64,000 nucleotides of DNA from Raillietiella orientalis (lineage: Eukaryota): positions 2,108,001 to 2,172,000 of the forward strand of contig JAYWIR010000027.1 in assembly GCA_036172245.1 (NCBI GenBank). The letters are read 5' to 3'. Shown one piece after another: positions 3,611-34,329 of the stretch. The stretch's first letter is position 1. Each line of letters opens with the position of its first letter. A program made the translations under genes and the position numbers. Below the pieces are notes generated by a model, which was not told the origin of the DNA, did no database searches, and worked only from the letters and a program-made list of their open reading frames with translations.

Positions 3611-6134
3611 CTAATGCTCTGAAGAATCCACTTTCTTTTCTTGAATCCAATCAACAGATGCAGAAGCTTGGTTGCTGGATTCAACATTGTTGTCTTCCTG
3701 TCTTGAACGCTTGGGAATTAAAGGTGAGCTGGGATGTGGTGGGGTCAGAGAACAGGTAGATGAGGGCACACCATCTGCACCAGCCTCATCATTTGCATCT
3801 TGTGATGCTTGTGTAGCAGAACGGCATCGCCATTCCAATGCATTGTACAATAGCTCTGAGTCCTTTAGACTGCCCTGAAAAGTTCAAAGAATGCAAAAAA
3901 AAACTTCCTTTCTTTTTTGAAGAGTAGTCTCCTCACCATGACAAGATAAACTCTGGGCACCTCCTGGTCCAACACAGTGAAACGCACACTCTTGGGACTG
4001 GCCTGCTCCACTGCCATTCCTGCCCACACCTACAGCAATTCTTCAGGTACACATCTTGTTTTGCATACACACCAAGGTGTTGAGAACAACACGTAGACTC
4101 CCTTGCAAACGCACTACAATGCGGGAGCGCAGGCTGCTCATATCATTGAGCCTCAACTGGCCACAGCCTCGTTCTTGCCACTGGCCTTGGACTGAATCAT
4201 AGGCAAACAAACGACAGTTCATTTGCAGGACATTGAATTCTTCCTCTTCGCCAGTTCGCACAGGAACCTCAGCATACTTTCGCTTGGTCTGACGTGCTTG
4301 CTCATATTCTCTCGCACTTTCACTCAGTGACTTGGCATTCAGTCCAGGAGATGTTTCTCCATTAGCACCCTCCTCCTATTCACTATGCTAATGAATATGA
4401 GGTTTGCATTTTACCTGGCTTGTAGTGTCTGCATGTGCAGCTGCTGCAGAGAACAACAGATCTGAAGAGCCATTAAGAGAAACAGCAGGGCTGGAAGAGG
4501 ACACTGGGCACTGGGAAACATTTTGCACACGTTCCAGTAGGTTCTGGCCAAACACAAACCCATCTCCAATACTACTGTACTTAAAGGCTACTGCAGGGCT
4601 AAAATAATGGCCAGCTAATACCTATGAACATGTCCATCCCCGGTTCCTCCATCTTTATCTTCAGCTTTGGCTGGCTCACTTCTGCTCAGTTGAGGAAATG
4701 AAGTAACAGGTTCAGCATGGCTGGATTCAGGCCCATTATTAGGCAAATAGGTTGTCAGTTTTGATGCATGATCAGAAAGTGCAGATGGACGAAGTATATG
4801 TTTGGAAGTTGATGAAGATACCTGACTGGAAGGTCCTGAGGAAAAATGGAAAGAACTGTTGACCCTGTATTTTTACCTGATTCCTGGTTAACAGTTAGTT
4901 TACTGGGTGCTAATAGAGGACGACATGCTGTACTATCAGCCAAGCTACGCACTGGAGTCATACTACGTACAGCAAAGGGATTATTTGAAAACTTCGAGCT
5001 GCCCAAAGTAGATGCTATCATGGAAAGCTTATGAAAGCTTAAGATCAAGTGTACAAACCTGAGCCAGCTGCAGATGTACCAAATATGGAAGTACTGGAAG
5101 AATAGTGCATACCACCAGTACCATTAGCTGATGCTTTTTGTTTGTGCTGTTCACTATGCTTGCATTCAGAATCAGATGATGGTTCCGTATCTTTATCTAC
5201 AAATACTTAGAAAAACTAAAAACCAGAACTTTCTTACCAGTTGTGGATGTAGTAGTGCTATGATTACTACAATCACTGGCATCTGCAGAGTCACAAGGTT
5301 TCTCAGAGTCCTGAAAAATCCAATATCATACAAGAACACAATTCTTTGTGCATTTTTTTTTCCTTAAACAAAAATTGTCAGTTTTATGGCCTTAAGCTCC
5401 CTTTCCTGAGAAAAATCCATTTGTTTTTGTATAATCTCAAAACTGCACATGCAGAATGTTACCCTACACCTCAAAATAATATACCAACAAAGTATTTCAA
5501 ATAATAAACACAGTTTCACTTGATTACATCCTTATACCCAATTAGATCCAGGATTCATTCATTTATTGCTTAAGTGAAAGCAACAACAGCTTGAAAATTT
5601 AGCATGTCAAGAAAACTCAAGCACATAAAACACAACATCCCAAGACTTCATTCATTAATATACCAACAATAACATTGTTTGTGTGCTATGCTCATTCATA
5701 TTTCAGCATGCTGATGCAGGATCATGATGAATACTAATCTTTACGGATTATATTTTTCCATGAAAAACATGGACCATAAGTAACAAGTATCAGTGTTCAC
5801 ACAATTCTGCATTTATACACAAACGGGACATCAAAACCAAACAAAATGTCATCATTCTGATAATATCGTCACTGATAAGTCATCAACAAAATTGCTGAGA
5901 ATTTCACTTCAAATTATGATTTCCCGAATGCTGCAAACATACACTTTCCAAAACCGGGCACACAAAATCATTAATGAAACAGGAACACAAACAGCTCTGC
6001 AAGTCTTCATCAAACAACACGGTAAGCATTACAAAAAATAGCAAACACCTCTTACCAAATAAAATTTCAAATATATTTACATGAAAAAAAAAAAGGATTT
6101 TATGAATGAGTTCCGGAAGAAGAATCCCTACCAT
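3611..6134 (-). CDS. RANBP3: Ran-binding protein 3-like (C-terminal RanBD)
   Basis: RanBD exons: EVPVRTGEEEEFNVLQMNCRLFAYD...WQERGCGQLRLND...SRIVVRLQGSLRVVLNTL, then VWAGMAVEQASPKSVRFT, then LYNALEWR. Upstream are an FVFGQNL motif and a Ser/Pro-rich region. Stop at 3611. The start (ATG|GTAGGG at 6134, spliced to an exon starting ~5311) is tentative. Confidence 0.82.
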
Positions 6135-9100
6135 ATGCTGTATTTGCCATTATTCATTTGTTCAAGTTTCATAAAAGCCCAGCACGGGTCAAAACGATGC
6201 GTTGATCCCCTCTCATTAATTCAAATTTGAATTAGTTACGAAAAAATTACTGTACGATGGCAATTCATAAAGGAAACACTACTGCTGACACGGTAAAAAA
6301 AAACTTAAAACACCGGAAATTTCTAAAAAAAAATGCTGGTGTGCCTATGCTTCAGATATCCATGCAAAACAGTCAACACTAAGTTCTCGTCAAATCCAAT
6401 CACCCAAGATTGTAACGTCAAGTGCTTTGATGAGAATCTCTCCCTTTTAAACGAAGCGGTGATTCACAACTTGAAATTACATACAAAACTTTGCATACAT
6501 GGCAAGCTGAATATTTTCCAAATCAAGTTTAACAAACACAGTGGGAAGTGGGAAACAATTTGTTTCGTAAAAAAACACAGGTCAACAACAAGGCTCAAAT
6601 TTTAGTATAGTTTGCAAATTACCATTATCAAGCTTGACACAAATCATTTAGCCAGTAATTTCAATCCTAAATAGGAAGGAAACGCTTCATACGTTCATGG
6701 CAATGAACACTCCTACGGTAAATGAAATGCTCGATTTTATCAGTAATCTGGAAGACTGCCACATGAAATATGCATACAAATAGCCAGATTTCTGTAGTCA
6801 CCAGTCATTTATGACGATACTCGCCAATCATTTCACCTAGTTTGACAGTGTCAGCACTCCATTTGCCTTCTTCGACGTTACATTCAAAAAACCCTCAACG
6901 TGAGGGCTTGAAAAAACCGTACATTTCGAATAAGTTACACGGGTAGCGTAGAAGGTAAATAAAGATTATTGCTATTAACAACGGACAAAATTATTGCTTA
7001 TTTGGAAGAGGCAAATGATCAATAAAGGACTTAATGCGAAAACGACAACAGAATTCTTTTCCTTTTTACTTTCTCGTTTCTAGACGTAACCCTACGTTAC
7101 CATCAGATGCACGGCATTATACATTCCCAATTTTTCAAAAACATTGCAGATAGATCATCACATTGCATCACATTGGAATTATAGTTGGGAAAGAATGTGA
7201 GGTAATTGGGAACATACATCCCCGCGGCGCTCGGAGACTGACCGATAATTTCTACAAGAACGGTTGCTACGATTCGTATACTGTTAATCGACAGAATGGA
7301 TCTCGTCTCCTGAGCAAGTCACAAAGATCTTCGAGGTCAGTTCTCAATCAGGAAAGATGTTTGGAGCTTCTCGTTGAAAAAAATTTCCATTTGGTTCGTG
7401 GCAAACGCAAGGCAGGATGCCATCAACCTATAAACAAACACGATCAGTTGTGGTAGCATAAATAGCAGGAATAAACAGAAGAAGAAGAAAAAAGTAGAAG
7501 GATGCAAATCTTTACAGGCATCAAAAACATGTAAATAGTCTGCAGAAAACAAAGGTGAATATTCCTCCATAATACCAAAGTAAATGCTTCATTTACTTCT
7601 ACTTACTTACTTTCATTTACTATGAGAGTTGGCTTTGCCTCACATGGAAGCTTACATTCAAACGGACTAGGGAAAAATAATTAATAGTTATTTCCAGTAT
7701 TGTTGTTAATCAGTGTGACAGTAATAATAATAAGATGATTAAAGATGACGCCTGTGAATCTGGAACAAAGCCATTCAGCACCACCACCACCGCAATGCTG
7801 AATAACGTACAACCATTGCAAGAACATTGCACATTTGACTTCTTTTTTCTACTTGCTTTGTTTGTTAGATATGAAGAGAATAATAATATTTCAACAGTGC
7901 TGCTGCCATTAAGAGATTAACTGCAAGCTAATGATACTTGTTTACATATTAGGGATTCTAATTGAAGCGCTTCGGAATCTTCAGCCTTGCTCTTTGTTTC
8001 ATGCTTCACAGTGATTTATCTCGAAGAAAGAAGAAAATAGAACTGCTCATCTTTGTTGATAACACTCTGCAGACAGAACACAAACCAAACTAAAATGGAA
8101 ATCAGACCGAGATAAATCATAGTGTTACGAACATATGTGAATGTATTTATTTCGATCTTTCCAGGGAGGTCATTACATTATGTAGTGTAAATGATATTCG
8201 GCAATTGGATTTAATATGACTTACGGAAGGAAAAGACTGGACAAATCACTTGAAAGGGATGAAAATAAAGGACTGGAATGTACTTTTGATAATTGTTCAG
8301 ATTTAAGAGAGTCAGAAGAATGTATCCCTCTATTAGAGTGTGATCGGCACAGGCTTCGACATAAGAATTAGGATTGCACGATTTCAAAAGGTTATAATAG
8401 AATGATGCATTCATTATACACACACACATATGGATACAAAATCATGAACCAATACATGTACGTCTGTATGCATAAGTAATTACAAAATTCAATTCTCCAT
8501 GTATTATAATTCATTTATCTGTCGTAATAATTCCGGAGATTCTTTTTTCTTTTAACGCAGTATTCCTCGGATTCTGCATTTTCAAAAAATCTTCCTAGAA
8601 TCTAATGAAAAGTGCTTTCTGTTCATATCCTTTGCATGGAGGATATGAGTACTATGTCATCATAAAGGTATACGTAATTCACAGTAATCTAGTTTTCTAC
8701 TCCTGAGAAGAGCTCTTCTATTTCTGAGAATAACTGTATTAGTCAAATGCTAAGTTCTTGCTTTAATTTTCTAGACGCTTCAGAGAATTTTTCTTTGTTA
8801 CCTCTTCTCTCCAAAGCATTCTCTATAAAATAACTGTTTCCTTAACATAATGTATTCCTTAACATCCTGTTTTCAAATATTTGTTGATCATGGGTGCGCT
8901 GTGGAAAAGAACTTTTTTGAAGAAAAATATATCCTCTTAGGTACTCATGTACTAATGTAATTATTTCTCATCTTGCTGTGTAAATCCTTACTACTGATTT
9001 TGCAATTACCAGTAAAGCTTAACAAGGTGATAAAATACTGAAAGAAAAAACTACTAAGGAACAAGCATTGGATAATGAGAAACATTATTTTTCCACTTTG

Positions 9101-10289
9101 CTTCGAACTCCACCGTTCTTTGCATTTCATTCAGTGTGCCATTGGGATACAAACAATGAACAAAATTTTAATTACACTTTATAAGTAGTCTGTGAAGCTA
9201 AGGGAAGCATTCTATAAAGTGATTTGCAATCAAAAACAAAGTTTCGTGGAATTAGGAATGAGTCATAGTAGATGGGTTATCTTGTGATTGTAAAAATTAC
9301 GTGAAAAGTCGATAAAAGGATTCAGAACAACTTCCCCATCTTGTCATTCTTGACAAAACAAAATTCGTTTTCGCTCTAATCAGTCCATGCTCGCAAGGAA
9401 GGCTAAAAATTTCAATTTAAAGCAAGAACTCTCCTGTGATCATCTACCATTTGAACTGAGGATTGAACATGAAGTAGGTTTCTTGAGAAATAAAAAAACA
9501 AATAGACTCTTACATTTAGAGTTCTTAATGCTCTAGCAAATGAATTTCATTTTCACAATGGCAAAAAAATGTACGAGAAACATGTGTACGCCTTTGGTTA
9601 GGACATGGATTTAGATTTTGATCTTCCTTTTACGATCAGTCAAGTAGACAGAATTAATCTCAGAGAAAGCCATTCATATTTGTTGCTAGATGATGATCTA
9701 AAGGAAGACATTCGCTTCAGAAACAGCGCTGACTTATTAGAAATAGTTTCAACACGTGAGGAAATGCTAATGAACAAAAATTATTCTAGAAGGAAGCCTA
9801 GCAGTGTTGTGTTAAAGGAACAGAGGTTAATCAAAGTATGATGTTTCGTGCCTCAGAGAACATGAGCTAAATTAGGATCTGAAAAAAATTCAGCAGTGAT
9901 GCAAATTAAAACTTAAATACTTTAAACTAAATACAAAATCACAATAAGGATAAATACGTTCTGTTAGCAGCCTTTCACTTTAAACATGGTATTATGAACC
10001 AGTGTCCATGAAATCAATTTGAGAAGTAAATAATGCTAGAATAAAACAAAACGCAGACGTTTTTAGAAAAATTATGATTAGGAAATGCAATGATCTCGTA
10101 AACAGATAATCGACAGGTTTTTGTTTTTTTTTTCATTTTAGATTTTAGATTTCAAGTTTATTATGAAGTAAATTTATACAAAATGCTATCCTTAAGTACG
10201 ATCATCTTTGCAATTTCCAAATTAACAAATCGATAAGGTTTATTCTTTTTTCTCCTTAATAGGAAAAAAGAAACTTCTCCGTCGGGGTT

Positions 10290-10323
10290 CCCACAAAGAT
10301 GAATTATTATTCATCCTTGTGGG
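10290..10323. repeat. short inverted repeat (15-bp stem, 4-nt loop, 1 mismatch)
   Basis: cccacaaagatgaat-tatt-attcatccttgtggg. Confidence 0.7.
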
Positions 10324-12584
10324 TCCATTTCAATTGAAAACATTATTTTATTCCTGCCAGCTTTCCAACTGGCCATGCTCTCAATGAAGTTTACTGCAGC
10401 TTGTGTTCAAATTCTTTGAATTTCTTCCTTCAGGTTTGTCTTTTTGAATTCAGTTTTTAATGCTTTAGTTTCACTCTCTCTCAATATTTTACTGACCAGA
10501 TTGGAGCTCTGGACTATCATTTCTTGAAGAAATATTGCAACTAGACTATTTTTACTTCATAGTTATCGTGGCATGGAAAAATATCTACTCATGGATCAAG
10601 AGCCCTTAGTTCATTTTTATCTGCAATATGCTTGCATGCGTGTTTGGCCACACCACGTCGAGGAAACGAGCTTTCATATTCTGAAAACGATCGCATCATG
10701 TTGCACGAAATCCCATATTGTATTTATAATTCTGTGACCGCAGTCTGGTTTGTTTCCATGTCTTCATTTGCTAATAATCTCTCAGCAGTGCTGAAATTTG
10801 CTGGGACTTTGATTTTTAAGATGTTTTATCTTTTTAGTTACATTTTAAATTAAAGAATCAAAGTATTTGCGATTCCTATTTGATATGGATGACTTGATGA
10901 CTTGAATAAATCCACCTCGTGCAATCTTCTACAAATTAAAATGAGAAGCCAACCGGATCAGTTTATTTATGGTCTAAGCACATATTTCGATCGGAACATA
11001 TATTTTGATGTGCAATCTTGCAATTGAGATAAGAGATAAGTGAGATTTAGCATTATAAAAGGATAGGATCGGCCATGGTATTAGACATAAGTGGAAAGCC
11101 AAGTCCAAGCTCTCTTTCTGAATTTCAAGTTTTTTTCATATACTTCTTTGCCAATTAGTCTCACTTTCATAGTTAGTAGATATCATGCTGTCTGTTTGTG
11201 GAGTGGGTATACATTTATTTTTCTTCGGCCATTAGTAGTGGCCACCGCTCTAGGAGAGTGAATAGATGTTAAAGCAAACTGGACTGTTTTCATGTTAATT
11301 GTATTTAAAATACTTGTTTTACGTTCCTTATTGCAGTCCCTCCTTATTGAATCAAAAAAATAATTTCGGCTAGTTTTGTTGTTTTGTTTTAATTTTGAAG
11401 CAGAACATTTCTAAAACCTTATTTTCATATTAACCTCAAGTCATTCAAAAAAGTGATTTAACTCATGGATTTTTACCAATCAGTAATTTGATATTTCATG
11501 TTACATATAAAATATTATTTGTTGTTTTCGGAGATCATTAAAGTGATTTCTATTCGAAGTTCATTTCGATAAGTAGTTTACAATTGGGCAGCATTAAATA
11601 AGCATTGTTTTCATGGATTTTGCTTTTCCCCCTCTTGAAACTAAGAGGGATTTTGTTTTCCATTTAGAATTTTCGATATTGTTAGCATAAGAGAAAGACT
11701 ACAATCATTTGCCTTAAGCTTATATACTAGATAATTTCTAGATACTTCTCGGATTATTCATTCTACTTTACGCATATTACTAACTTCTCTATTCTCTTGT
11801 TATACTGGGACAAAGTATTCTGAATTTGGTAATCATATCTAAATAGTCCCGCATTTTTTCTTTGTAAGTTATTAACACCCTGAAATATTTGTAGTCTTCG
11901 ACATTGCTTAAAATGAAGTATAGTATTATCAGGAAGTAGTGAAACTCTTAAGCATCAAACTTTTATATGTAGTTAATAAAGATGTCTGTGCTTGACTCCG
12001 GTTTTTGATTAATTTAGTAGTATGATTGAGTCCTGTAGTTCGTAATTACTACAGGTGGCATAATAACCTCCAGTAAGAATTGACAAATATGAATCACGAT
12101 GAACCTATTTTTGTGAAGTTATGTGGCGTCTGCGGATCTGACAAGTGGATTTTCTAAAATTTTGGGGTTTAAGGTGCTTTGAATCAAATGAAGATTCTCA
12201 CTATCCAAAAGCTCGTTTTTATTGTTATTTTCATAGTTCTACAGTAACTTATCACAAGATTTTTTATAGTTTCTAGTGTTGGTTGCAGGTATAGGCTTTA
12301 GTTGCAATTGTGCATAGATGTATGCTTAGGTCGACACTTTACTGGACACTATTCCCCAACGAACTGTTATAGATAGCTAGTGGTAAAATAATTACGTGAT
12401 TTGGTATCAATGAGAAGTTTCTGGGAGTACGTGAGGAACGGCAGGTAGACGAAAGTGATTGTCTCTACTATGTGAGTTGTGATTGCCACCCTTCGAAAGT
12501 TCAATTTTGGATTAATCTAAATACTTTTGTATTCATCGAATGAATTCATTTAGTACGTAATTCAGTAGAGCGGTAGTAATTAGC

Positions 12585-14528
12585 ATGTTTTCCAAATTTG
12601 GAATAGATAATCAAATCACTAGAACTCACTCAATCAAAGTGCCTCGGTTGTACAAATGTGCATCCAGCGTGCTAAAAGAATACAGAAATGGAAATAGCTC
12701 ACTTATGAATCTTATTATGAAAGTCAAACATCCAGTAAGTACGGAAAGTGTAAATGATAAACGACGTCAAATATTTTTTCTTGCTAATTAGAATAAAAAA
12801 GCTATAAAGTCTTTGGCTACTTCTGCGATTGCACAAAGCAGCCAGTTAGACCATATTCTCATGCAAAGTGGCCTTCTTTCGGCAGCAGGAAGTGTAGATG
12901 AGAATCTTTTAAAGATTTTAGTTGTAGAATTGCTTGCTGGTAAAAAGTGCCTTAAAGGAAAGAGTAAACCGGTTTTGAAAGTATTAGAATTTCAAAACCA
13001 GTTAATGAGTGCTGCACAAAAATTCAGTATAATGAAAATAAAGCAAAATATTTCTGATAAACGTAAGTCATGTTTCTTTTTCTAGCAATTGAATATGGAA
13101 AATATTGTTCATTTTATCGAGCCACATGTCATTTGGACAATGCTTATTTACTCTTGTGCAATGTTCAGCTTTCCTATTGCTGGTTATTATTTGGCCAAAC
13201 GGTCGGTTGAGATTTTGTTTAGTGTCAGCAAATATGACAGTTGGATTTATGGTGTTGTGGTCTCACTACTGTTGCTATATTTAATCATAGCATTATTTGT
13301 TTTTAAAGCTTTTAAAGAAAATGATGCACCTGATCATTCAGTGAACACTAATAGCGTTACAAAGTCCAAATGAACAGTGCAGTGCATATTTTATGATGAG
13401 AATATATCTTCTGGAGTGCTTTTTTGTGAATATACATATATTTTTGTCTGTGCATAAATATGAGTTTACTGTTTTGTAACCCCTTATCCAGCTCCCAGAT
13501 TTGTGAGAGTTAATACCCTTAAAATATCTCTGGAATCAGCCATCCAGAGATTCCAGAAAGATGGCTGGAATTATGTATCATACGATCAAACTCTTGTGAC
13601 CTATTCAGAGTTTCTTGATGGAGTGCAAACCTTGACTACTGATTGCTTTACTTTGGACTTTCATTTGCCTGATGTAATGGTTTTTACTGCAGGCTCGGAA
13701 TTTTACAATTATGCACTGTACAAAGAAGGAATGATTTTGCTTCAGGACAAGGTACTGCAGTTTGCAAAGAAAGGCCTAACATATAATTCTGACAGTCTAC
13801 CTGTTTAGTGGCTCATGTGTTGAGTCCTAAACCTGGATCAGTTATCATAGATGCATGTGCTGCACCTGGGATGAAAGCAACACATTTGGCAGCTCTTATG
13901 CAGGGAAAAGGGTATCTTCAGTGAATTAGGTTATAGTGTAACTGCTTCTGTTTTCTTAGAACCATCTATGCCTATGATATTAGTGCTCAAAGATTGCATG
14001 TCATGCAAGAAATAGTGCAGAATGCAGGTGCTGATTCTTGTGTCGAGTTATGCCACCAAGATTTTCTTCAGGTGAACCCTGAGGAACACCAAGACATTGA
14101 ACTGATTCTCGTAGATCCTTCCTGTACTGGAACAGGTAGAGGAATGCTCATTCATTTCAGTTATGACTGATTCTTTAGGGATTAGGCAACGTCAGTTGCA
14201 CACAAATGTAAATCATTCTCGGGTAAAACAGTTACAAAAGGTGCAGTCATTGCTGCTTTGCCATGCTTTAGGTTTTCCTTCGGTAAAAAAAGTGATTTAT
14301 GCTACTTGTTCCCTGCTGGAAGAGGAAAATGAACAAGTTGTCCAATATGCATTGGAACAATATGGAGACATGTTTACATTGGCAACTCCCTTAGAGTCCT
14401 GGAAAAGAAGAGGATTGTCTTCATACAGTTTTGGATCCTCGTGTTTACGTGCATCCAGTGAAGACCTTTGTAATGGTTGTTTCATTGCCTTGTTTGAGCG
14501 GAAAGAAACACAGGTAGCTGATTCTTAA
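12585..14528 (+). CDS. NSUN5: 28S rRNA cytosine-C5 methyltransferase NSUN5 (6 coding exons)
   Basis: Exons 12585-12734, 12792-13062, 13492-13751, 13796-13911, 13960-14135 and 14180-14528. Motifs: [72 protein letters not shown]. Confidence 0.92.
13095..13373 (+). CDS. VMA21: V-ATPase assembly integral membrane protein VMA21-like, nested in NSUN5 intron 2
   Basis: 92-aa intronless ORF with two hydrophobic segments ([45 protein letters not shown]), matching the VMA21 pattern (LL.F...M...PI..Y...DS..YA...AV......ALFVY.A..E), and a lysine-containing C-terminus (TKSK). It lies wholly inside intron 13063-13491. Confidence 0.8.
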   Translation: MENIVHFIEPHVIWTMLIYSCAMFSFPIAGYYLAKRSVEILFSVSKYDSWIYGVVVSLLLLYLIIALFVFKAFKENDAPDHSVNTNSVTKSK

Positions 14529-15749: not shown

Positions 15750-16750
15750 CTACCGCGTCTGTCTCCGGACTTTCTCCACTTGCCCAGCCACTCAACGCTT
15801 GAACGAAGCCTGCGAAAAATGGGCGCGTATTTACATTGCATTTAGATCGCTTTCTTTCGACAGGTGCTTTGGGCTTTCTTGCGCGCGTGGAGCTCCGGTT
15901 TCCATTGCTTTTCCTGTGGTCTGGTGGAAGCCGGCCGTGAGAGTCTACCAATTATTCGCATGCGCTCAGGAACTCCCTCCGCCCTCTTGAGGAGCGAGTT
16001 TTCGACTCGAGAGATGCGTTCGCTTCCTTTGCTAGCTACCCGTCAGAAGCCTGTGCACTTGCCACTTTCGTTTCTAGGTATGGCCAGCCATCTCCTTGCG
16101 AATTTTCTCCCTGCTAGAGTTTTTGCATCTATGTATCGCCCTTTTCTTTCTCTTGAAGAAGTTTGTGCGAAAGAACAGGTGACTGATCCTTTACTTCCGT
16201 CTACCCTCTGGCCTGCAGAGCGCAAGGGCTTTTGTCTTCTAGTCTCGTCCACTATCCTTCCTCTCTTCCGGTCCATTTCGGCATAGACAGAAATGCAGGG
16301 CTAACTCTTTGAAGACGGGTTCCTCTACCGGCCGGATCAACCGCGCGAACGGAGGGATCAAGGATATAGATGACGACACGATGATTACCCTCATTGCTCT
16401 GGATGACCATTGGGAGGCCGTGGCGCAAAGGACTGACAGGAAAACCACCGCGATCGCAAAAGGTCTCCACTGGGCGATGTGGAGCTCTCAATCCGTTCCC
16501 GTGCCCACGCCACCGGTAATCGTGGACGGTAATCGTGATATCTTTGAAAGTGCAAATGGAAAGCATAGAGGTGGACACCGACCCACCTGCAGCCTCGGAC
16601 GAGACAACGCTCGTTGGTGGCGGGCGCGCTCAACATCGTTCCAAACCAAACTAGCAAAGCACATCGCCTCCGAGCGGCAACCCAACGGAAACTACGGGTT
16701 CCCAGGCGCCCTCTGACAAGCGGTCGGGTGGTTTTTCAAAAGCAGCAAGA
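15750..16750 (+). mobile_element. decayed non-LTR retrotransposon reverse-transcriptase fragment
   Basis: RT-like relics occur in the expected order across frameshifts: EACEKWARIYIAFRSLSFDRC (D..KAFD motif), DIDDDTMITL...W (ADD motif), PVIVDGNRDIFESANGKHRGG (KYLG motif). Confidence 0.4.
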
Positions 16751-16799
16751 TAAAGCAATGCATAGATGCTGCAATACAAACGAACACGCAGTCCCCTGC

Positions 16800-18550
16800 A
16801 GTCCTGTTCACCGTCCAGATACCGTCGATGCACATCCGGGGCACTCGGCCACTCCTTGACAAGATATCCCAATTAAATGACTGGATAGGATCTCTTCTGC
16901 AGTTGCGAATCCGTCTTTCTCATGGGCAGTCCTGTTAAGGTTTCCATAGCCACCACTCCCTGATATACACGGTACTCGTAATGGGGAATGCAATCGTCAT
17001 ACGCACTTTGGAATTGTATAAGGGAGCTATCCCTTGTTCCTTGGGAAGTACACTCAGGATAGGTCTTCTGCAAGCGCATTACCCTCCACACCGAATTCTG
17101 GAGTAGCGTTGGGCAGGGGAGAATGTGCAGTTGCATTTCCAGCTCTCAGGCGCTTCCTTCCCGGAGGTTACCCCTTCAATTCGAGTCGTGTGCTACACAA
17201 GTGCTACTCCATGATAGCAGATCAGGAGGTCATCCTGAATTTCTAGTGGTAGGCCCCACTTCCAATTGTTGTTCCGAACCATCTGGAATCGGGGATCGAT
17301 CAGTGATGACCGAGGACAGTGAAAGTCGCATTCATACTATGCGGATGTCAAACGGGGTCGACTTGTTTGATCGACTCTTTCCAATCCAACATCTCCGTTC
17401 CCCAAAGAAGGCGTCTCTATGGTCAGGAGACGAGGAGACAAGAGGAAGGCAGAATGCTCCCATGACTACTCGGACTCTGAGGTAGACGGATCCTCTTCCT
17501 CGGAGCGTTGGCAAGGCGACCAAAGGGGAGCAACCCTCCCTCCTTCCGGTGCTTCTCCGTTGTTGTCTGCGTCATCAGCCTCTTGCACACTTTGCACCAC
17601 GGAAAGCAGTCCCTTCTTTTGTCCGCTCACGCATCCTGCAACGAACTCTTCCTCTGATCTCCTCCGCATGGCAATTATTCTCTTCACGATCGCGAGATGG
17701 CAGAAGGCACGAATCGCCGCACGCTTAGCGGCGAGCTCATCGAAGTGGCGTTCCCTTCTCATCCGCGACCACCTCCCTTTACAAGAGACAATTAATGCCA
17801 TCGCTAGGAAGTCGTAGTTGCCCGAATTTCCCCTATGACCCCTTGATTTTCTTTCCTTCGCCCCGCATCGCCGAGGCGCATGTGAGCCGGTTGGAAACGA
17901 AAATTTTAGAAGTCACAGGAGGATTCTGGGAACAACGAACACAACACAAACACCATCATCTCTTCCCGCCTTCCCGTTTGTCAGCATCTCCGCTTACCAC
18001 TGAAACAACCCTGCAACCCACAAGAGAAACCTCAAAGTCTTTGTTGCCCAAGACACTGAAAACAACTCCTTGCTACCCTTCCCGCCATGCTCCGACCCGC
18101 GTCATTTCCACGACCGCCTCCCACCCCCTCCCTACACGTCCCTTATCCCACCCCAAAAAATCATCCATGCAGTAAGGCGCAAACACAACGGCCTCAACCT
18201 CTGTAGGGGGTTGCGCCTGGAGCCCTTGCGGTCGATCTGCGCAAAGCATTCGACTGCGTCGACCAAGAACTTATGCAGCTCCTAGAACGCATGGAATTCC
18301 CAGCCGTCTTCCTGACTTATCTGAGCTCCTGCTGGCGCAGCGTGCTTATTAATATTGCTTTCAGTGGACGGTCCATGTATGGCATGCCGGTGCGGCGCAG
18401 CCTTAGGAAAAATGACAGGCTGAACTCCCGGCTCTTCAGCGCACGTGGCTCTTTGAACACACTGTTTTGTTTCCACGCCACTCCCCTGCGACAACCCGCA
18501 GGGGGGCGTGTAATTCTCCAGGATAGGGGGCACCCCGGAATAGAGGTCCG
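16800..18550 (-). mobile_element. decayed CR1/L2-type LINE ORF2 (endonuclease-linker-RT relics)
   Basis: Minus strand, in order: ENYTPP (APE YRPP-like), CFAQIDRKGSRRNPLQRL (Q.V..PTR.N.LDL-like), IVKRIIAMRRRSEEEFVAG..GQKK.LLSVVQS (CR1 linker-like), KSRSNKSTPFDI (K.KS.GPD-like), APLYNSKVR (post-RT LY.S.VR). Many stops and frameshifts. Confidence 0.45.
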
Positions 18551-18639
18551 CCTTATGAATCCAGGAAGGACTCGGAGTCCGTTCCTCTTACGCCTGGGAA
18601 GGGATCTCCGGATATGGAGATCACCTCCACACTGGTTGT

Positions 18640-18850
18640 CTCCGAAGGAGAGTAGAGAAGGGAATCCTCCTTCTCTATTCTCTCCGGAGGACCCCCGGAA
18701 GGGTCCGCTCCATTCTTTCTCCTCTGAAGGGAACCCGGAAAGGATCCCATCCTGGAATTTTTCTTCTCCGGAGGGATCCCCCGAAAGGGATCCGCTCCTG
18801 TTTATTCCTCTGAAGAGAACCTAGAAGGGACTTTTCCGAAATTCAGAAGG
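18640..18850. repeat. degenerate GC-rich minisatellite, ~42-bp unit (~84-bp higher period)
   Basis: ttctctccggaggacccccggaagggtccgctcc...tctgaagggaacccggaa (from ~18678) recurs as ttcttctccggagggatcccccgaaagggatccgctcc...tctgaagagaacctagaa (from ~18761). Confidence 0.6.
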
Positions 18851-20249
18851 ACGCAGCTTTCCTGAAGGGATCGGTTCGCTTCTCTGCATTTTCTGGAGAG
18901 GTGGTGGCGACACACTTACTCCATCTGTACGACGTGGAGAGTCTCCCCGGAATGGAGGGTCTGCTCCTTCACAACCGGAAGAGAGCTCCCACTCCGTGAT
19001 TCCTGGAAGGACCCGGAGGTCGACTCCCATTTGTCCCGGCCCTCATCGAGGGCATCCGGTTTTCACCTCTACCAGTGCGGCACCCGGATGAATGAAGGCC
19101 AATCAGCGTCATCTTGTGGGGTGAAATCGGGACCCACGACGCCCTGCGTCGGTTCCTTTCGGTATTCGAACCCACGACGCATGGTGCCACGCGCGGAGAC
19201 CCCCGTAAGCACACGGCCTCCGACGCGGGCCTCGTCTCTCTTCCGAGGAAGACCGCCGGGCGTGCTGGTCACCACGACGCTGACGCCCCTCCGCCACTTC
19301 CCCAAAGAAGCGTACGCCACGAAGGAACAAGCCACGGCGAGCGCCAAAATGGAAAAGGAGGTGGGGGGAATGCAGCCGACATCCCTTAGAGCTGTCGCCG
19401 CCACCTCCTACATGCGAAGGAGGGATGAAATGGCCCGATCCGGGAAGGGAAGTGCGAGGGAACCCACTAACCGACTGACCCCAAACCAGTGAGCGCAGTT
19501 TCCCCTTCCGTCCCTTCCCCGCCAGACGCGGGTCCTCGGGGAACAAGTGGAATGCCGCGAGCCATTCCCTATTAATTCATGGTTTCCCCCCTCTGAGAGG
19601 GTAGCCCCAATGGGATTCGGTCCGACGCAAGTGGACCCTCCTCTGTCCACGACTGCGTGATTTGCTCCTCTCTCCCCTTCCAACGTGCAGCGCGGCCATC
19701 CGGGGTGAGGAGGTCATGCCGGAGACCTGCGGACTCCCGCAGGATGCCGAGATTTTACTTCGGGCTGGCTCAGCGACTCGTTGGCTGCAGAGGTTCTTGT
19801 CTCCACTGTGCCCCGGGGGATCGACAGATAGCCGCTCCGCATCCCCAGCAAGGACCCCTTGTTTCAACTTCGGAGAGGGAAGTGCAATTCCTGGGAACAG
19901 GGAGAAGTCGGAGAGGGTACTCACCATGGAACGAGGACTGCTTCAGGAGACTCCCAAGCGGCGGAGACTTCCCCGTACAACAACACTCCGGCAACCGCTG
20001 ACCTGGTCACCGGCTCCAGCGCGGAATCCTGTCCCTAGGGATAAGGGAGGTCAGATTTTTGCTCCCGTTTCCATGGAGCGCGTCAAGGAACCTCAGCGCA
20101 TCGGGCCGCGCGCGCGATCCTTGAGCATCGGCTGCTCTTCGTGTGGGCTGGAAGGCCGCCAGCGGCGCAGCACAGACGCAGCGCCGGTCTCGTGCCTTTC
20201 CAGTGCGCCGGCCGCCGCTGCGAGGAAGCAGAAGATCCTCCCACCCCGG

Positions 20250-21400
20250 AAGGCGAGCCTAGGGGCACGACGGCAGCTGCATCAGCAGGGTTCGGCAGTC
20301 TTCCGTTTCAAGGTACGCTCCCGTGTCATAGCGGCAAGCTGGCAGCGTCCCAGCAAGAGGAATGGCGAAGATTTCGTTCAGGAAGCCGAAGTTCCGAGCA
20401 ACTCGATCCACTTTTGCTGCCCTCGGGCGGGAGGTATTCGGGAGCGCTTGGTTTCCTTCGCTAATCCAGACGTCTGCCATGGAGGTCCGGTAGCCCTCTC
20501 GCTGGCGGCAGAGGCCTATCGGCGAGTAGTGCGCCAGAATGCTCTCGAGCAACTTCTTGGCCGGCCAGCCTGGGATGCGAGGTTCCGTCGACCACATTTT
20601 CCAGTTCGACGTCTGTGCCCACTGGTAGCAGGGGGGCCACCGTAGGGGCGCGCAGAGTACAACGCACTATGGAATTGTATAAGGGAATCGCGCTTCCGAC
20701 CGTGGTACTCCTGCAGGAGATTCACAGCACCTCCGAGTAGAAGGTTACTGAGGTCAAGTGAAACCGCAGGGTGGCAAGACTCCACACTATCGTGCAGAGT
20801 TGCGTTCATCCAGGCGATAGCAGCGAGAAGTATTGTTTTGGACTAGGAGGGATGAGTGGATCAACTTGTCTTTATGTGGTCCGATTTGGTCAACCTCGTC
20901 GTGACGTACGTGCTCTTGCCGAGCCCTTCAGAGGCAAGCGGTGAGCGAAAAGAGTTCTCTGATGCCCTCCGGAGCAAGAGGCTCGAAGGCCTGGATCCCT
21001 AGTCACTCGTCTCATCTCAGAGGACTTCGATGCTCACTTGTTTTCAGACGAGAGCAGCTCTCCGAAACAAAGATCTCTGGCGAGGGAGGTGTGCGCGTCT
21101 GTATAGCCAGTGGAAACTTAGGATGGAAAGAGACTCGTCGGATGTCGCCTTCGGAGAGCACCTGGCTCCCCGAGCAAGGAGAGAGGAAGAGTGCTTTTTG
21201 ACCGCCACAGGTTAAAACTTCGGGATTGTCCCACCTGGAACCAGTCCGGGGGATGGTTTGGAGGATGCTGGCGGGGTGATTAAGCCATCCGGAGGAAGCG
21301 GATGCGGAACATCTCCTTCAGTTCCTCCATGGCTTTGCCACATCATAAGCTCGGGGAGTAAAACGAAATGAAGCGCTCCGCCTGAGAGTTCTGCTGCCGA
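20250..21400 (-). mobile_element. decayed CR1/L2-type LINE, 3' part of ORF2
   Basis: Minus strand reads ISCRSTTV..IPLYNSIVRCTL...DVELENV / RIPGWPAKKLLE.IL...LCRQRE, resembling the CR1 C-terminus (I..R...IPLY..LVRP.L...LE.VQ...IPG....ERL..L..L..RR). It shares acgcact.tggaattgtataaggga with ~17001. Confidence 0.45.
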
Positions 21401-24400
21401 TTCCACTTACCCCTTCCTACGTGGCGTCGGAGAGGACGCGCAGAACCTTTCTGTTTGCTCTCGGTTGCGTCCGGGCGTTTATTGTGGAAAAAAAGAAAAA
21501 GACATTTCCAAATAAACAGTCATGAATTGAGAGGAAAAAAAAGCTATTCATTCATTGTACGAATGGCAGTCGTACTGCATTCTTCAGGAGGGATTCCTCT
21601 TAAAAGCAGTTAAAACAAAAATTAGGGGAACAAACGAAAAAAAAAAAATGAAAATTTTCATGAAAATGGAGAAAAGGGAAGGATCGCCGCTTTCTTCCTG
21701 GCGTTCTCCTCCTTTCCAGGATGCCGACAAGTTCCCCTTTTTGCGGTTGGAGGTGAGGCCATCTTATGGCCATCCCAATGAAGGATACCACGATTGGCAA
21801 TGCACCCTTGGATTGCTGGTCTCTTTCGCTGAGGTTTCTTGCTGCCATGGCTTCACGGAAGCAGCACAAGTCTGCGAAGGATGCCTCAGGTGACTTTCTT
21901 CAGCGAATGAAGAGGCCTTTCAGCACGTTTATCACGTTGTCATTCGGTGATTCCGGGGACGCAGACAAACCTTTCCAAACGCTCCAGAGGGCAACACACT
22001 CACAAAGCAAAGGTGAAGGAAGGTTTCCCTTGTACAGCACCTGGAGCACTCAACGCCACACTTCCCATGGTCCAGTGGTGGAGGACTGCGTTGCATGGGA
22101 CAGCCCAATGCAACAATTTCAATGCCTAGCCTTTCCACTTCAGTGGCAACAAAGGTTCTGGAGCACTGTTTCCGCCTCTTGTTTCAGAGATCACCAGAAG
22201 ACATATCTGCCCATCCTTGACAGCATTCCACAGCCCATATTTCGTACTGTTCCACTTGCAAGAAAACTCGCTGCTTCCTCATTAGCAGCTCAGAGATTAC
22301 GCAGTCTGTTCAGTGAAGCTGCTGCATTCTTGGTAACGTCCATACGATGCCAGCATCTACTCTATTTGTATCAAAACATTAATGATTGCAGAAAATACGG
22401 ATACAGTATACAGAACGACGGGGGATGGGATTGTCCATAGTTTCCACAATCTTCTACTCTAGAGCTCTATACTTGTAGATGCGTCTACTGTTGTGTATGT
22501 TCCTTGGCAGTCAGCAGTAAGCACATTCACAATTGAGAAAACTTGCAGCCAGCCTCTCATTGCTTTTATGGAGAAGTGTAAGTTCCAAATGTCCGAAATG
22601 TGTGTAAAATAAAAATGAGGAACGAATGAAAAGTACTTGAGATTTGTATGCGTGCGAAAACACATGAGAGAAATTTGTGATCCTTTAACTGCGTATTGAT
22701 TGGTTTCCTTAGAAATTGGTGCTCAAATCTCTTGAAATGTGGGCATAAAGTGAATTGGTGCTGACTGATAAGATGGCACCAAATGCGTTCATTTGTTACC
22801 CGGTTGCGCCGGGACGTTTATTCCAAATCGTCTGGGAACTGTGTTCCCAGGCAAGGGAACAGAAGATGGGGAGGCTGTACACGACATGCAGGCCGGGCAC
22901 ACTGAGAGTTCGGAACGGCAGGGAGGGAACAATAAATAAATAAATATGGTGGGAGGGTGGGGATATGGGTCTGCAGTCCAGCCGTCCCTATTCTCAGAAC
23001 CGGCGGTGAATGGCGACAATCTTCGTCCTCACTTCTGCGTCAAGGTGTGGCCACCCGGCAGCCAGTTGCAGATTGCAGGCTGCACTGTCGGGGACCGATG
23101 TTGGGACTGCTCGCATCTGCAATACGTGGCGGGCCCTGACAATGGCGCGGACGCAGCAGATGATTGCGACGACCGCCCCAAGAGATAGGCCGCCACGCGT
23201 GAAGAAGCGGCGCATCCAATCCATTGCGGTGTGTCCGTGGTGCAGGAGCGCTGAAGACAGCCGCCGCCACAGCTCCCGGAGGGACCAAATGCGTTCGTAG
23301 AACGTGTTTCCGTCGACTGCTCTGCACTTAAATTGAACTGCGGGTTGCCTTCGTGTCTGTGCCACTAATCCATCTAGTTGTGGCAGTTTTCTTGGGGGAG
23401 GGGGGAGGGCATTGGAATGTAGCTAATTCCTGAGCTAACAGAATTCAAGAACCGAAGATGGAAAGCTTTTGAGGTGTTTCTAAGAACATTGAATCACAAA
23501 GTAAAGAGACTCATATAGAAGAGCGTATTCATGTGGACTGTACTTTATCCATTCCATTGGTAAATTGACTTACTAAGAGCGATCTTTGAAATTCAGTTTA
23601 ACAAGTTAACTATGAACAAATGACATTCTGTCTTTATCTTCAAAGTCATTGATGTTCATATACAAAGATGTATAATTCATGACGTGGAATCTTTAAATAT
23701 AATCTTCAAATGGAAGTAATTTTTTCCTAAAATTCCAGTTCGTTTACTTACGTGTTTATTTATATTCATCTCCAGGTTATGGCAGAAGCGTGGGTTCTTG
23801 TGCCTTTCCAAAGACATGCATGTTCAATCTAGGACTCGAGATTTTGCTGACTGGGAGTTTCCTTCCATGCATAAAGCGTTGGGTCCGTGCAAGGACACTC
23901 CAGACGTGGTTTGCTGCTTCAGTGGATGAATCGGCACCCCCTCAAGTCCACTGGAGAGCACTTGGCAACTGCGCGAACATATGGGGAAAGTCACGGAGGA
24001 CGAAAAACAAAACAACGCTTTGAGGTGAGCACCTGACTTTTACCTACTATGACCGAGAGCGGAAATCATTTTTTATTTTCGAAAGTATCCCTCGCTCACA
24101 ATGACCAGGAAGTGAATCGTATTTTGCTTTCCTGCCGAAGTGTGTTTAAAATAGCTTGAGCTGTGCATGCACGGCGAATGTGAAGGCCTATTCGGGGAGC
24201 ACAGAAATCGATAACCAGTTCGTTTGTACACCAGATTTTGTTCCCATTTGTTCCCGGTTCACCTTTGGTTTGTTCAGGTTTCCCGATGCCCGTTGATGCC
24301 TCAGGTCATGAACGCATTACTGCCAATAGAATAGCCCACTTCTGTTATTTCTTTCCACCGAGACTTCGAAACCAGGGAAACATCGGTTACGAAGATCATG

Positions 24401-27500: not shown

Positions 27501-27880
27501 TTTTAGTTGGGTCCAGCCAATACTGCAATGAACATGAATGAAGTGTTTGAAAACCACTTCTACTTACTTGTATGTGGGCAGCATCCGTGAACTGTAGCCC
27601 AAAATAGTCTTTTTCTATCAAATCCAGGGAATAAAATACGTGTTCGTACAGTTCCTGTGCAAATGCCTTCTTCTGTGATAATTGATAATTTCACATTAGT
27701 ATCAATTGAACATCTGATAAAACTTACTCCCAACTCAAATGAAAGATCGGTACCATCTAAAACTATTACTTTGCACAATATAGTTTTATTGGGTTTCAGA
27801 CTAGTTGAATTTGGTTGCACTTTTGCGAATGAATTCTTTTCAGGAACTCTTCCCTTCCGTTTGCTAAACAGTTTAATCAT
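24557..27880 (-). CDS. EPB41L5: FERM-FA protein, yurt / band 4.1-like 5 (EPB41L5/EPB41L4B family)
   Basis: The spliced FERM domain reads [11 protein letters not shown]...[13 protein letters not shown]...[53 protein letters not shown]...[11 protein letters not shown]...[13 protein letters not shown]. The FA region reads GSRFRYSGRTEFQ...FERRPSQRF. The C-terminus is the PDZ-ligand VVTEL*, typical of Yurt/EPB41L5. Confidence 0.9.
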
Positions 27881-30800
27881 GTCTAACTAATTGAAGTAAC
27901 TTTTTCATTCTTTCCTAATTTGGATACCACCTAAAAATTGACATAATTAAGCTCTTTAGTTACTCAGCGGCTCTATCTTCATATGCCTACTGATGATCAG
28001 AGAAAATGAGAATTGTACTTTTTATCATAGCGTGTAAAGAAGTTTTATTCTGTGGATAAGGCTGCAGTCAGATTATGATGCGGTGTGGACGGTATGTGTG
28101 TACCTACAAATGTTTCGTACATTACGAGGTCGTATTGTTTACATTTCCCAATTCTGTACGGGCGAAATTTGATGCCGCAAAAGCGGAAACAATCCGGCAA
28201 TTCCGTGGTTTTCGACCGTATTTGCACAAGACACGTTTTAAACATTCTTTCGTGAACACATTGGAATCCCTGGGTTCATAATTTTTCTTAAAAAAACACA
28301 CACAAAAAAAACTTTTTATTGAAGCTCATGCCAACCGTTAAACTGAATGAGGAAATAGCGTTACGTACCTCACCTAGAGAATCCCCGATCGATTTCAGTT
28401 TCCAAAATCTCGGGCTCGGGAGATTGAGATTTTTATTTTCGGTTTGCTTCTACACAAACAAATGAAAAACGGGATGATACGTTATCATTTCCGAGCGTAA
28501 CCTTGACGAGTTTTCATCATTGTCATCAAACCGCCGATGGCATTGAAATCCATTCACCTTTGCAGGTAGATGCGAATTGATTGCACCTCACGATCGTGAA
28601 CTTTAGCGTTGTTGTGTACAACATCGGGCAGGCAAACGGTGTGTGCCCACCCCGGACAGTTTCCCTCCCTGGGACCTGCTCCCGGAAGTGGCCATGGAAA
28701 AGGGAAGACCCATCGTTCGACGGAAATTCGAAAAATCCCCGCTGCCCGGTCCATTTTTCCTGAATACGTGGAAAGGAGTTTCGAGTTACGGCCATCTTCA
28801 GCAGACGCAGGATTTTGGAATCGCCGCTACGATGCCACCGTTATGTGAAATTCGACATCACAGAAATTCGAGTTTTTCGATCCGCAGTGTTCCGTGTGAT
28901 CAGCACGAAAATCTTTCGTGTTGTCTGTTTGCTTTTCGTTTTTTTTTTTTTTTTTTTTTTGCCAGTTATTCATGGAAGCAACGTGAACTTAGCAACCGGC
29001 GTATCCGTTTCTCGTTACCATACCCACATGACCACCTAGGCGCAACCTCTTTCAAATGTAGGCAGAGTGACCTATTACTGACGAATTCGTTACCTGCTTC
29101 CATAGGAAGAACATTCCTTCAATACAATTAGGTCAAAGAAATTATGAAATAAGCAATGAACAATTCTGTGAAAGCATCCCCGCATTATTTTAACGAAACA
29201 GCTATGTGCTGTGGTGAAACCTTTCACCATCCTGCATTGCGTTATTCTCTTTCCATACAGACTGAGATGCAGCATCTGCTCAACCAAGTATCATTTCATT
29301 CCAACATTTTCCATTCCAGGAGAGTATTTTGCATGTCTTTTTTTTTTTTTTTTGGCTCCTGCAACAACACTAGCTGTCGTGATTTCAAGAGCCCATCTGT
29401 GTTCTGTCCTTTGTGAAGAATTAACAGCATTGCTGACAGGAAATGGAACCAAAATAAGGACCAATATGCACAGCTCTTTCGCTTGAAAAGTTTCACTGCT
29501 TTGGAGAAGAAATGCATTTTCAGTACTCACGGATACTTTTTCATATGCCGAAAAATTTTACAGCCGGAGAATCCTATATCAATCAGATCTTTTTTTCCTA
29601 TCGCCTTCAATGCTTCTTTAATGATCCGATGATACAGTGATGAGCTCACTGTTTCAGATTTGGATTTTTTGTGAATTGCATGGGTTTCAAAATTTTTTGG
29701 TAAGTTTTTTTGGGTAGTCATTTTTGATAAGTTACCATAAACAGTTCTAGAGCTTTAATACATATTGATGATTTTCATGCTCAAGTACCTCATTTACTGT
29801 AAACGCAATCTGACAAATAACCTGCTCATACATCAGATCATCAGATAATACGTTAGTTATGTATCAATTGATATGGGATGCGTTATGATCCGACTTCAGA
29901 TGTGATGCCTGTGAATTGCTGAAGAAAATAGCTAAGATTTGGAGAAAAAAAAAAACAAAAAATGCATTCAGTGTATTTCATGTGCTCAGTGTCTGACACC
30001 AATCAAGTCATTTCGTAGTATGATTTTCAGCTGCAGCTCATACACATCGTTGTCTGTATTTCGCAAAATTCAATTTTCCCTCTTTTTGAGTTTTTCGTTC
30101 TGGGTGAAATCAATAAAACTTCAGAGCAAATTTACATTTCGAAAGTAAAATTATTTCGCGAGCTCTGAGCTGAAAAGCCAGGAACGTGATTTAAAAAAAC
30201 ATCAGCTGTTTTGTCGAGAATGGCTGAAGACGTTTTCTGCACCTCTGATGGCAACACCGCGTTTGCATTTAAGTGTCCCCTCGTTGAATGGATAAGAAGA
30301 ATCGTAAGTTTTGACACGGAATGACAAACGATACCTTTCTTTTTTTTTTCTTTTTTTTTTCAACAAAAAGTTGAGAAATTTCAACTGTCTGAAGTTTATA
30401 AATATCTAGTTCCAATAACTTTTGGTTGTTCAAGTCCGTGCTGAATACACTATTCCTAATATGAATTATCGTTCCATTTTTTCATTAATTAATACCCGTA
30501 TTAATTAGATTGGTGTTTCCGATGCTCCATGTCCATCATGATTACGATCGCATAATTGCAATGGGCTGATGCGTTTTACTCAGTCGTTTCCTCTGTTTTC
30601 AAATTATTGTAATGAAACGCTCCCAATGCATTGAATACCAAAAGTATTCGTATGTACATATATAATATTACCACTGGGGTGTGCGTCAACAAAATCAATG
30701 AAAAATAGTAAAACTTCACCTGTAGAAAGATGTTTGTTTTTGTATGTGAGTCCACCTTCATTTACATTTCTAATGCATGAACTCCGTCAAAGGTAGATTC

Positions 30801-31449
30801 ATTCATCTTGACCCATTTAATGACTATCCGAAATGCATTCCTTGTTGGAGTAATCCAAGATACTAATGCAAGCCCCATGGATTCCTGATCTACAAGATGA
30901 ATTTATCTCCATAAAACATCGGTATTCCAGGTGTTGCATGGCAATCCCCCTCCCCCCGGCACGCAACCACAGCTAGAAACCAATCGATGCCTGCTTGATG
31001 CTGCTGCACGCATCTTGTGCACTTCCTGTTTCCGTAAACAACTAACAAATATTTTCTTCCGAAAACAGATTTGTGGTAATTGACTGTGCATCATTTGGAT
31101 ATTCTTGCAACTACTCCGACTTGTGCATTAATTTAAAAAAAAAAAACACATATCTGACTGGCGCCTCTCTCCCCCCTTTTCTTGCTTCGGTTCTTCTGAT
31201 ATGCAAAGAATCGGGTCGCATCCACAAATATTGATCTCGCTACTGCTCTCCGTCCTCTGGCTCCTTTTTTAACAAGTAGGCTCTTCCCGTTCTCTTGCGT
31301 TCGCTCGTCTTTCCCAGCTTTCCCTCCCCCAATAATTGATGCGGCCATTTAATATCTCCGTTCCATGTCTTCCCTGATAATCACCGTCGTTCGTGACCTG
31401 ATTGCTAATTGAACTGTGATCTTTCAAAACTGAGTTCAGGAATCCATAA

Positions 31450-34130: not shown

Positions 34131-34329
34131 AGGAGGGCAGCAGGAGAAAAGGGGCAGGGAGAGGGGGAATCCGGGAGACGAGCGGCTGCAGGTGGGCAGA
34201 CGCTTCGCGGGCCATCGGGCCAATTTCGAAGCGCATTCACGGCGCTTCCATATGGAAAAAGTGACCACCTGCAGACGCTCATCTCGCGGATTCCCCCTCT
34301 CCCTGCCCCTTTTCTCCTGCTGCCCTCCT
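34131..34329. repeat. 68-bp inverted repeat with 63-nt loop (foldback/MITE-like hairpin)
   Basis: 34131-34198 is the reverse complement of 34262-34329 with 4 mismatches. The loop contains smaller stems (cgcttcg/cgaagcg; ttccatatggaa). Confidence 0.9.

Follow-up and report, generated by a model that had tools for sequence, protein, structure and literature searches.

The cholinergic locus and the Drosophila gene pairs with common 5' exons are the closest described counterparts of the locus studied here, in which an open reading frame (ORF) for VMA21 lies within intron 2 of a gene for NSUN5. The VAChT ORF is a single exon in intron 1 of ChAT, and that locus, whose arrangement has been conserved between nematodes and mammals, makes its two mRNAs by alternative splicing and from multiple promoters, shared or neighboring (PMC3053374). 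In FlyBase, 130 Drosophila genes use a common promoter and 5' non-coding exons, and in ten pairs and one triplet the members have a start codon and N-terminal residues in common (PMC4528330). The best studied pair, Su(var)3-9/eIF-2gamma, is thought to stem from transposition into an intron (PMC4528330). In this study, we analyzed a stretch of 64,000 nucleotides (nt) from Raillietiella orientalis (contig JAYWIR010000027.1, positions 2,108,001 to 2,172,000), called the window hereafter; all positions are counted from its first nucleotide. The DNA of the window is nuclear and comes from an animal-like eukaryote. We propose, with a probability of roughly 40%, that an intact single-exon VMA21 gene has been incorporated into the NSUN5 transcription unit.

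VMA21 in NSUN5 resembles VAChT/unc-17 in ChAT/cha-1. In both cases, a single-exon sense ORF lies in a 5' intron of the host, and the two products are unrelated in sequence. ChAT and VAChT belong to one pathway, unlike NSUN5 and VMA21, for which we know of no common pathway. A further difference is that NSUN5 intron 2 lies between coding exons, so the first two coding exons of the host would be bypassed or wasted. At the sequence level, VMA21 has two properties of a cholinergic-type pair with shared exons, namely sense nesting and a 3' splice site that would need an upstream donor.

The FlyBase pairs with shared 5' exons, such as Ip259/RpS27A, are similarly made from one promoter by alternative splicing to separate coding exons. 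They are backed by complementary DNA and RNA sequencing (PMC4528330), whereas the NSUN5/VMA21 case is argued from splice-signal geometry only. A transcript joining NSUN5 exon 1 to position 13086, just upstream of the VMA21 start codon, would have the same design as Su(var)3-9/eIF-2gamma, and both pairs combine conserved proteins of unrelated function (PMC4528330). However, the 80 residues shared by that pair are documented in transcripts (PMC4528330), whereas the NSUN5/VMA21 joint is only possible and the VMA21 ATG is well placed. The H13/Mcts2-type pairs are described as a sense nested gene with 3' signals in the host intron, where splicing is set against premature polyadenylation (PMC13309782, PMC3890989, PMC11694760). 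NSUN5/VMA21 would be alike in these respects. Mcts2 has its own CpG-island promoter, whereas no space for a promoter is visible at VMA21, and the putative poly(A) region of VMA21 coincides in part with the acceptor region of the host.

Nsun5, Vma21, CG42358, and CG5969 were absent from six of the seven FlyBase supplementary files (all except file 1; the CG identifiers used may be incorrect). Our literature search found no paper that combined VMA21 and NSUN5 and, among the papers listed, none that by title and abstract dealt with nesting of either gene. As far as this search reaches, the NSUN5/VMA21 arrangement is not in print; the design itself is known for other pairs.

The nested reading frame and its host gene

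The nested ORF is in the sense orientation and occupies most of the 429 nt of NSUN5 intron 2 (Table 1). It is separated by 32 nt from the end of exon 2 to its ATG and by 118 nt from its stop codon to exon 3. An earlier note on this DNA had described a full VMA21-like ORF here and had proposed a comparison with Pfam, which the product passed. It scored 34.7 bits on VMA21 (PF09446; cut-off 29.5, E 2e-08), and the match spanned positions 2-64 of the 64 in the profile. All other sequence features named in that note (12472, 12735, 13054, 13063, 13085, and the frame from 13086) also lie where it placed them.

In the ESM Atlas, the nearest clusters were all VMA21 (top score 0.91), and 27 of 30 matches fell in the VMA21 set; the cluster members named among the VMA21 relatives were cephalopod VMA21s only. 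An exhaustive phmmer search against 1.84 billion representatives returned 39 proteins at E 0.001 or better, with a top identity of 41% and no match at E 1e-10 or better. Except for one outlier of 593 amino acids (aa), the matches were 66-149 aa long. Their aligned start ranged from residue 3 to residue 66, showing that the N-terminus of VMA21 is widely variable in length. The window protein is within the family range, as 8 of the 38 VMA21-sized relatives had an N-terminus as short as its own or shorter. A word-index search found no close relative for either VMA21 or NSUN5 exon 3.

In an alignment of 19 sequences, the window protein had both invariant residues, P27 and A72, as well as M23 and E75, which are near-invariant, and the AMF..P and AFKE motifs of the family were retained. 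A profile made from the window protein and 18 relatives, not the window protein alone, matched the yeast Vma21 chain 8eau_p (E 5.4e-08). Kyte-Doolittle values exceeded 1.5 in 19-residue windows at residues 12-30 and 47-76, and these two hydrophobic segments fit a hairpin of two transmembrane helices. A Lys residue occupies position -3 relative to the C-terminus, which also holds for each of the 11 top relatives examined, and a second Lys at -4 or -5 was absent from the window protein and from 5 of these 11. A C-terminal lysine-based retrieval signal for the endoplasmic reticulum is a feature of yeast Vma21 and does not define the Pfam family. The window holds no second VMA21 copy, since a single one of its 1610 six-frame ORFs matched the VMA21 profile. 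These results indicate that the nested ORF encodes VMA21 and is complete by family standards; a role in assembly of the V0 sector in the endoplasmic reticulum is predicted. In humans, VMA21 (X) and NSUN5 (7q11.23) are unlinked.

The ORF is intronless, as would also be expected of a silent recent copy rather than the working VMA21 gene of this genome. We hold this to be the least probable of all the readings considered. The ORF is intact, it has kept P27, A72, E75, AMF..P, AFKE, and the Lys at -3, and the locus shows neither poly(A) remnants nor flanking duplications.

The NSUN5 gene model (12585-14528, + strand) was rebuilt from reading frames and splice signals. Since the spliced model has 440 codons and its sole stop is terminal, the host gene is intact as modeled. 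Exon 2 matched NSUN5_N (PF21153) with 31.5 bits against a cut-off of 27.8, and exon 3 matched NSUN5_fdxn-like (PF21148) with 76.5 bits against 24.5. Exons 4, 5, and 6 covered the consecutive profile positions 2-31, 35-92, and 97-176 of Methyltr_RsmB-F (PF01189). The order of NSUN5_N, ferredoxin-like, and RsmB/F methyltransferase domains is thus kept in an open spliced frame. By the motif IV/motif VI cysteine pattern, both catalytic cysteines are present in the translations, where DPSCTG ends exon 5 and ATCS lies within exon 6. The joint of exon 2 to exon 3 restores the NSUN5 frame, and intron 2 is located exactly between the two NSUN5-specific domains. All other NSUN5 introns are short (43-57 nt), those after exons 3, 4, and 5 being 44, 48, and 43 nt long.

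Table 1. Features of the NSUN5/VMA21 locus, in window positions
Feature	Position	Strand	Remarks
Candidate donor GTGAGG	12431-12436	+	Closes a 7-codon mini-ORF (ATG 12410); phase 0, in frame with 13086
Candidate donor GTGAGT	12472-12477	+	Consensus match
NSUN5 exon 1	12585-12734	+	50 codons; ends in phase 0; donor GTAAGT at 12735
NSUN5 intron 1	12735-12791	+	57 nt
NSUN5 exon 2	12792-13062	+	NSUN5_N domain; ends in phase 1; donor GTAAGT at 13063
CTGAT branch-point-like motif	13054-13058	+	Lies within exon 2; the AG at 13085 follows 28 nt downstream
NSUN5 intron 2	13063-13491	+	429 nt, phase 1; contains the entire VMA21 unit
3' splice-site-like tract tgtttctttttctag	13071-13085	+	Ends in TAG, 9 nt before the VMA21 ATG
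VMA21 coding sequence	13095-13373	+	ATG 13095, TGA 13371-13373; 92 codons plus TGA; single exon
Variant poly(A)-signal-like hexamers (putative)	13401-13458	+	AATATA at 13401 and 13429; CATAAA at 13453
NSUN5 exon 3	13492-13751	+	Ferredoxin-like domain
NSUN5 exon 4	13796-13911	+	Methyltransferase domain
NSUN5 exon 5	13960-14135	+	Methyltransferase domain
NSUN5 exon 6	14179-14528	+	Methyltransferase domain; stop included

Splice signals and the origin of the VMA21 transcript

We compared the tract before the VMA21 ATG with eight acceptors, five from NSUN5 and three from PIGA, that were confirmed by protein homology. The acceptor at 13085 has 12 pyrimidines in the 14 positions from -3 to -16 and ties the best of the confirmed acceptors (range 8-12). 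Only 66 of the 3830 AGs on the + strand (1.7%) attain this value, and the earlier note was right to call the site strong. In a stricter pattern search between 12 and 15 kb of the window, only two sites were found, 13085 and one true NSUN5 acceptor. As calculated from the frequency of such AGs, the 32 nt that separate exon 2 from the ATG would contain an acceptor of this quality by chance in about 3% of cases. With the CTGAT motif included, 13085 was the only one of 3827 AGs to pair 12/14 pyrimidines with a CTRAY motif 15-42 nt upstream. A window-wide scan for an acceptor followed by an ATG mostly returned chance ORFs and was uninformative.

The distance from the exon-2 donor to this acceptor (13063-13085) is 23 nt, and that joint is out of frame. 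The shortest confirmed intron is 43 nt long, slightly longer than the approximately 41 nt given before. Because of this spacing, the exon-2 donor cannot, by the measure of the confirmed introns, pair with the acceptor at 13085, as the earlier note had held. These results suggest that the acceptor is beyond chance; it looks real, and it would require another donor or a leader.

Exon 2 and the VMA21 ORF share a reading frame. When intron 2 is retained, the exon-2 frame stops at TAG 13083-13085, and the VMA21 ATG follows 9 nt on. A bicistronic, intron-retaining NSUN5 RNA could therefore yield VMA21 by reinitiation after this stop or by read-through of the TAG, and the closeness of stop and start in one frame is in keeping with it. 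However, reinitiation is normally inefficient after an ORF as long as this one (147 codons), and the transcript would be a target of nonsense-mediated decay. We consider this route very improbable.

Since exon 2 and VMA21 share a frame, NSUN5 exon 1 (phase 0) is also in frame with 13086, as the earlier note had pointed out. The joint of donor 12735 to 13086 is open and stop-free over 145 codons, and the frame is open from 13086 onward. In a subset of the explanation that we favor, this joint would be used, and NSUN5 and VMA21 would have a common promoter, start codon, and 50 N-terminal residues. The widely varying length of the VMA21 N-terminus (aligned start at residue 3-66) leaves room for such an extension, and Su(var)3-9/eIF-2gamma provides a precedent in insects (PMC4528330). 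An in-frame joint, however, has a one-in-three chance of arising and follows from the shared frame of exon 2 and VMA21. Exon 1 contributes to the N-terminal fold of NSUN5, and no NSUN5-like N-terminal extension was seen by eye among 15 relative sequences. The internal VMA21 ATG has A at -3 and G at +4, a strong context for initiation. This context argues against the fusion variant and does not argue against a non-coding upstream exon. With this context at ATG 13095 and equally short N-termini in 8 of 38 relatives, the 50-aa NSUN5 extension suggested earlier is not needed, and we regard the fusion as improbable.

The sequence before the VMA21 start also carries upstream ATGs. ATG 13070 opens a 46-codon out-of-frame upstream ORF that overlaps the VMA21 start, and exon 2 carries four more ATGs (12861, 12898, 13005, and 13032). 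Any unspliced leader beginning upstream of 13073 includes ATG 13070, and a clean unspliced leader can be at most 22 nt long. Splicing onto 13086 removes ATG 13070 and all four ATGs of exon 2 and leaves 9 clean nt before the VMA21 ATG. Because of the strong acceptor, the unusable adjacent donor, and the upstream ATG in an unspliced leader, it is most likely that an upstream exon or a spliced leader is joined to the VMA21 mRNA at 13086 and that this mRNA ends within intron 2.

A free-standing VMA21 transcript, by comparison, would be limited to a leader of at most 22 nt and would depend on a promoter within the NSUN5 coding sequence. VMA21 would then be an independent nested gene with its own transcription start site, either at 13073-13094 (22 nt) or in exon 2; the tract would be core-promoter-like, initiator-like, or an accident, and NSUN5 would splice the gene out. 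We rate this as unlikely. Same-strand intronic nesting is common enough that FlyBase leaves such cases unflagged (PMC4528330). The ATG context is good, and the 92-aa product is complete, with N-termini that are no longer in 8 of 38 relatives and with the conserved Lys at -3. On the other side, a start upstream of 13073 brings ATG 13070 and its overlapping 46-codon ORF into the leader, the only space for a promoter is inside the NSUN5 coding sequence, and the tract ranks in the top 1.7% as an acceptor. The sequence offers no obvious space for a separate VMA21 promoter.

A leader at 13086 could also be added in trans, a route that the earlier note had not considered. A strong acceptor close to an ATG is typical of trans-splice sites in nematodes, flatworms, rotifers, tunicates, and others. 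At this locus, a spliced leader (SL) could be joined onto 13086 in a transcript that starts at the NSUN5 promoter and ends by intronic polyadenylation, as for a downstream gene of an operon. This would fit the acceptor and branch-motif evidence equally well, and a trans-splice site usually looks like this, with a strong acceptor within about 10 nt of the ATG and no cis donor close by that could be used. However, the approximately 70 nt before the ATG of PIGA, another gene of the window, contain no AG, and a GC-rich stretch precedes this ATG. Rfam found no SL RNA family in the window, and the gene density of the window is not operon-like. Trans-splicing is judged to be unlikely here.

One candidate for an SL RNA gene was considered and rejected. 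At 12472-12510, GTGAGT is followed 31 nt on by AATTTTGG, a layout of donor and Sm site. The motif was seen 7 times against 7.4 expected, and its occurrence is attributed to chance. The segment folded no better than shuffles (z +0.46), it was not repeated within the window, and Rfam found nothing there.

In the explanation that we favor, one transcription unit would give both products. RNA polymerase would start at or near the NSUN5 promoter. In some transcripts, an upstream donor (12735, or a leader donor at 12431 or 12472) would be joined to 13086, and cleavage and polyadenylation in the last approximately 90 nt of intron 2 would produce a short VMA21 mRNA with a clean leader. In other transcripts, the exon-2 donor would be joined to the 13491 acceptor, the VMA21 unit would be discarded, and NSUN5 mRNA would be made. 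The NSUN5 mRNA must splice out the whole VMA21 unit in any case. The putative poly(A) hexamers are followed by a TGTTTTGT stretch that doubles as the pyrimidine tract of the exon-3 acceptor. The putative signals and this GU-rich stretch would thus overlap the branch and pyrimidine region of that acceptor. Because of this overlap, 3'-end formation and intron removal would compete over the same approximately 40 nt, and each primary transcript would give one product.

The packing of the locus also supports a single transcription unit. Intron 2 is almost wholly VMA21, yet the approximately 8 kb upstream of NSUN5 (4400-12500) has no recognizable coding sequence, and none of its 54 ORFs of at least 45 aa matched Pfam. 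Because of this result, the tight packing of VMA21 does not reflect a general compaction of the genome.

Several observations weigh against a single transcription unit. By intron definition, the exon-1 donor should preferentially pair with the acceptor that lies 57 nt from it. Neither of the donors 12431 and 12472 is more than a consensus match, and nothing marks a transcription start site. The A at -3 and G at +4 of the VMA21 ATG fit a free-standing start, and the pyrimidine tract directly before the start could be a promoter or initiator element. The CTGAT motif is present in exon 2 as the earlier note had reported, but it adds little, because CTRAY occurs in merely 2 of the 8 confirmed introns. 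No canonical AATAAA was found in the 118 nt between the VMA21 stop and exon 3; in the 230 nt past the NSUN5 stop, none of the 13 hexamers tested, AATAAA included, was found either. In a search with the VMA21 profile, none of eight NSUN5-like metagenome loci carried VMA21. These loci, retrieved with exon 3 as the query, are distant (31-59% identity over short pieces), and the result therefore means that the nesting is not universal, and no more. A single VMA21 query against metagenome contigs found no relative.

A stronger form of the single-unit explanation can be formulated. NSUN5 and VMA21 would form an obligate unit with a single promoter and a splice-versus-polyadenylation switch within approximately 40 nt, so that their outputs would be reciprocally tied; in its boldest form, the two would share the start codon and 50 N-terminal residues. 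This form is tentative, and we regard it as doubtful.

The consensus donor GTGAGT at 12472 had been suggested to mark a non-coding first exon shared with NSUN5. The donor is present, but such a shared exon is not supported, as the AGs shortly before the NSUN5 ATG have 5-7 pyrimidines in 14 positions and are weak acceptors.

In the same region, we observed an 8-mer, AGAGCGGT, which has three exact copies in the window, at 12567-12574 (+), 43429-43436 (+), and 11244-11251 (-). Each copy stands 10-16 nt before an ATG, those of NSUN5, a NAP/SET-like gene, and a short minus-strand ORF. With up to one mismatch, 32 copies were found against 30.8 expected, which is not above chance. The 8-mer could serve as a motif of core promoters or leaders, or its placement could be coincidental. 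Another short sequence, AATTAG, terminates NSUN5 intron 1 and stands 1 nt before the NSUN5 ATG; it also lies 6 nt upstream of the likely start ATG of the FERM-domain gene (27878-27895, - strand). By chance alone, most ATGs would be expected to have an AG this near.

Other features of the window

Other exons of the window matched FERM_N, RanBP1, WD40, and glycosyltransferase domains in Pfam; matches to FA and NAP were below the cut-off, NAP just below. The glycosyltransferase gene could be aligned, as PIGA, with most of an annelid protein. For one PIGA exon, the best named match was to an annelid, with 77% identity, and a FastTree of 108 rows left the window sequence on a long, unplaced branch. 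A 2-kb island of approximately 70% G+C with (GCC)n-type repeats (48000-50070) adjoins the PIGA start on its upstream side, in surroundings of 30-40% G+C, and looks like a CpG-island-type promoter. NSUN5 has no G+C island of this kind.

Two blocks of 52-59% G+C (16000-22500 and 31000-35000) contain long ORFs that overlap on both strands, one of which has a reverse-transcriptase-like look. None of the ORFs tested in these blocks had a Pfam match at E 0.01 or better. The blocks are probably decayed transposable elements. A large inverted duplication was also found (54300-57497 versus 60563-63762), in which a series of ORFs recurs, with identical translated beginnings, on the opposite strand approximately 3 kb away.

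Significance of the arrangement

The splice geometry of this locus suggests a common primary transcript for NSUN5 and VMA21. If VMA21 has its own start site, it would be an ordinary nested gene. For annotation, the locus would be a difficult case, in which predictors would tend to miss the 92-codon gene, to fuse VMA21 to NSUN5, or to split NSUN5. That ribosome modification and V-ATPase assembly are functionally coupled, as the earlier note had envisaged, is speculation; rRNA methylation and vacuolar acidification could conceivably be linked in physiology, but this analysis lends the idea no support. If the common transcript is real, two unrelated conserved housekeeping genes would be forced onto one promoter and separated solely by RNA processing. 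The locus would then be useful for studying how splicing competes with intronic polyadenylation when the intron is very small (429 nt), and it would inform how host introns capture genes.

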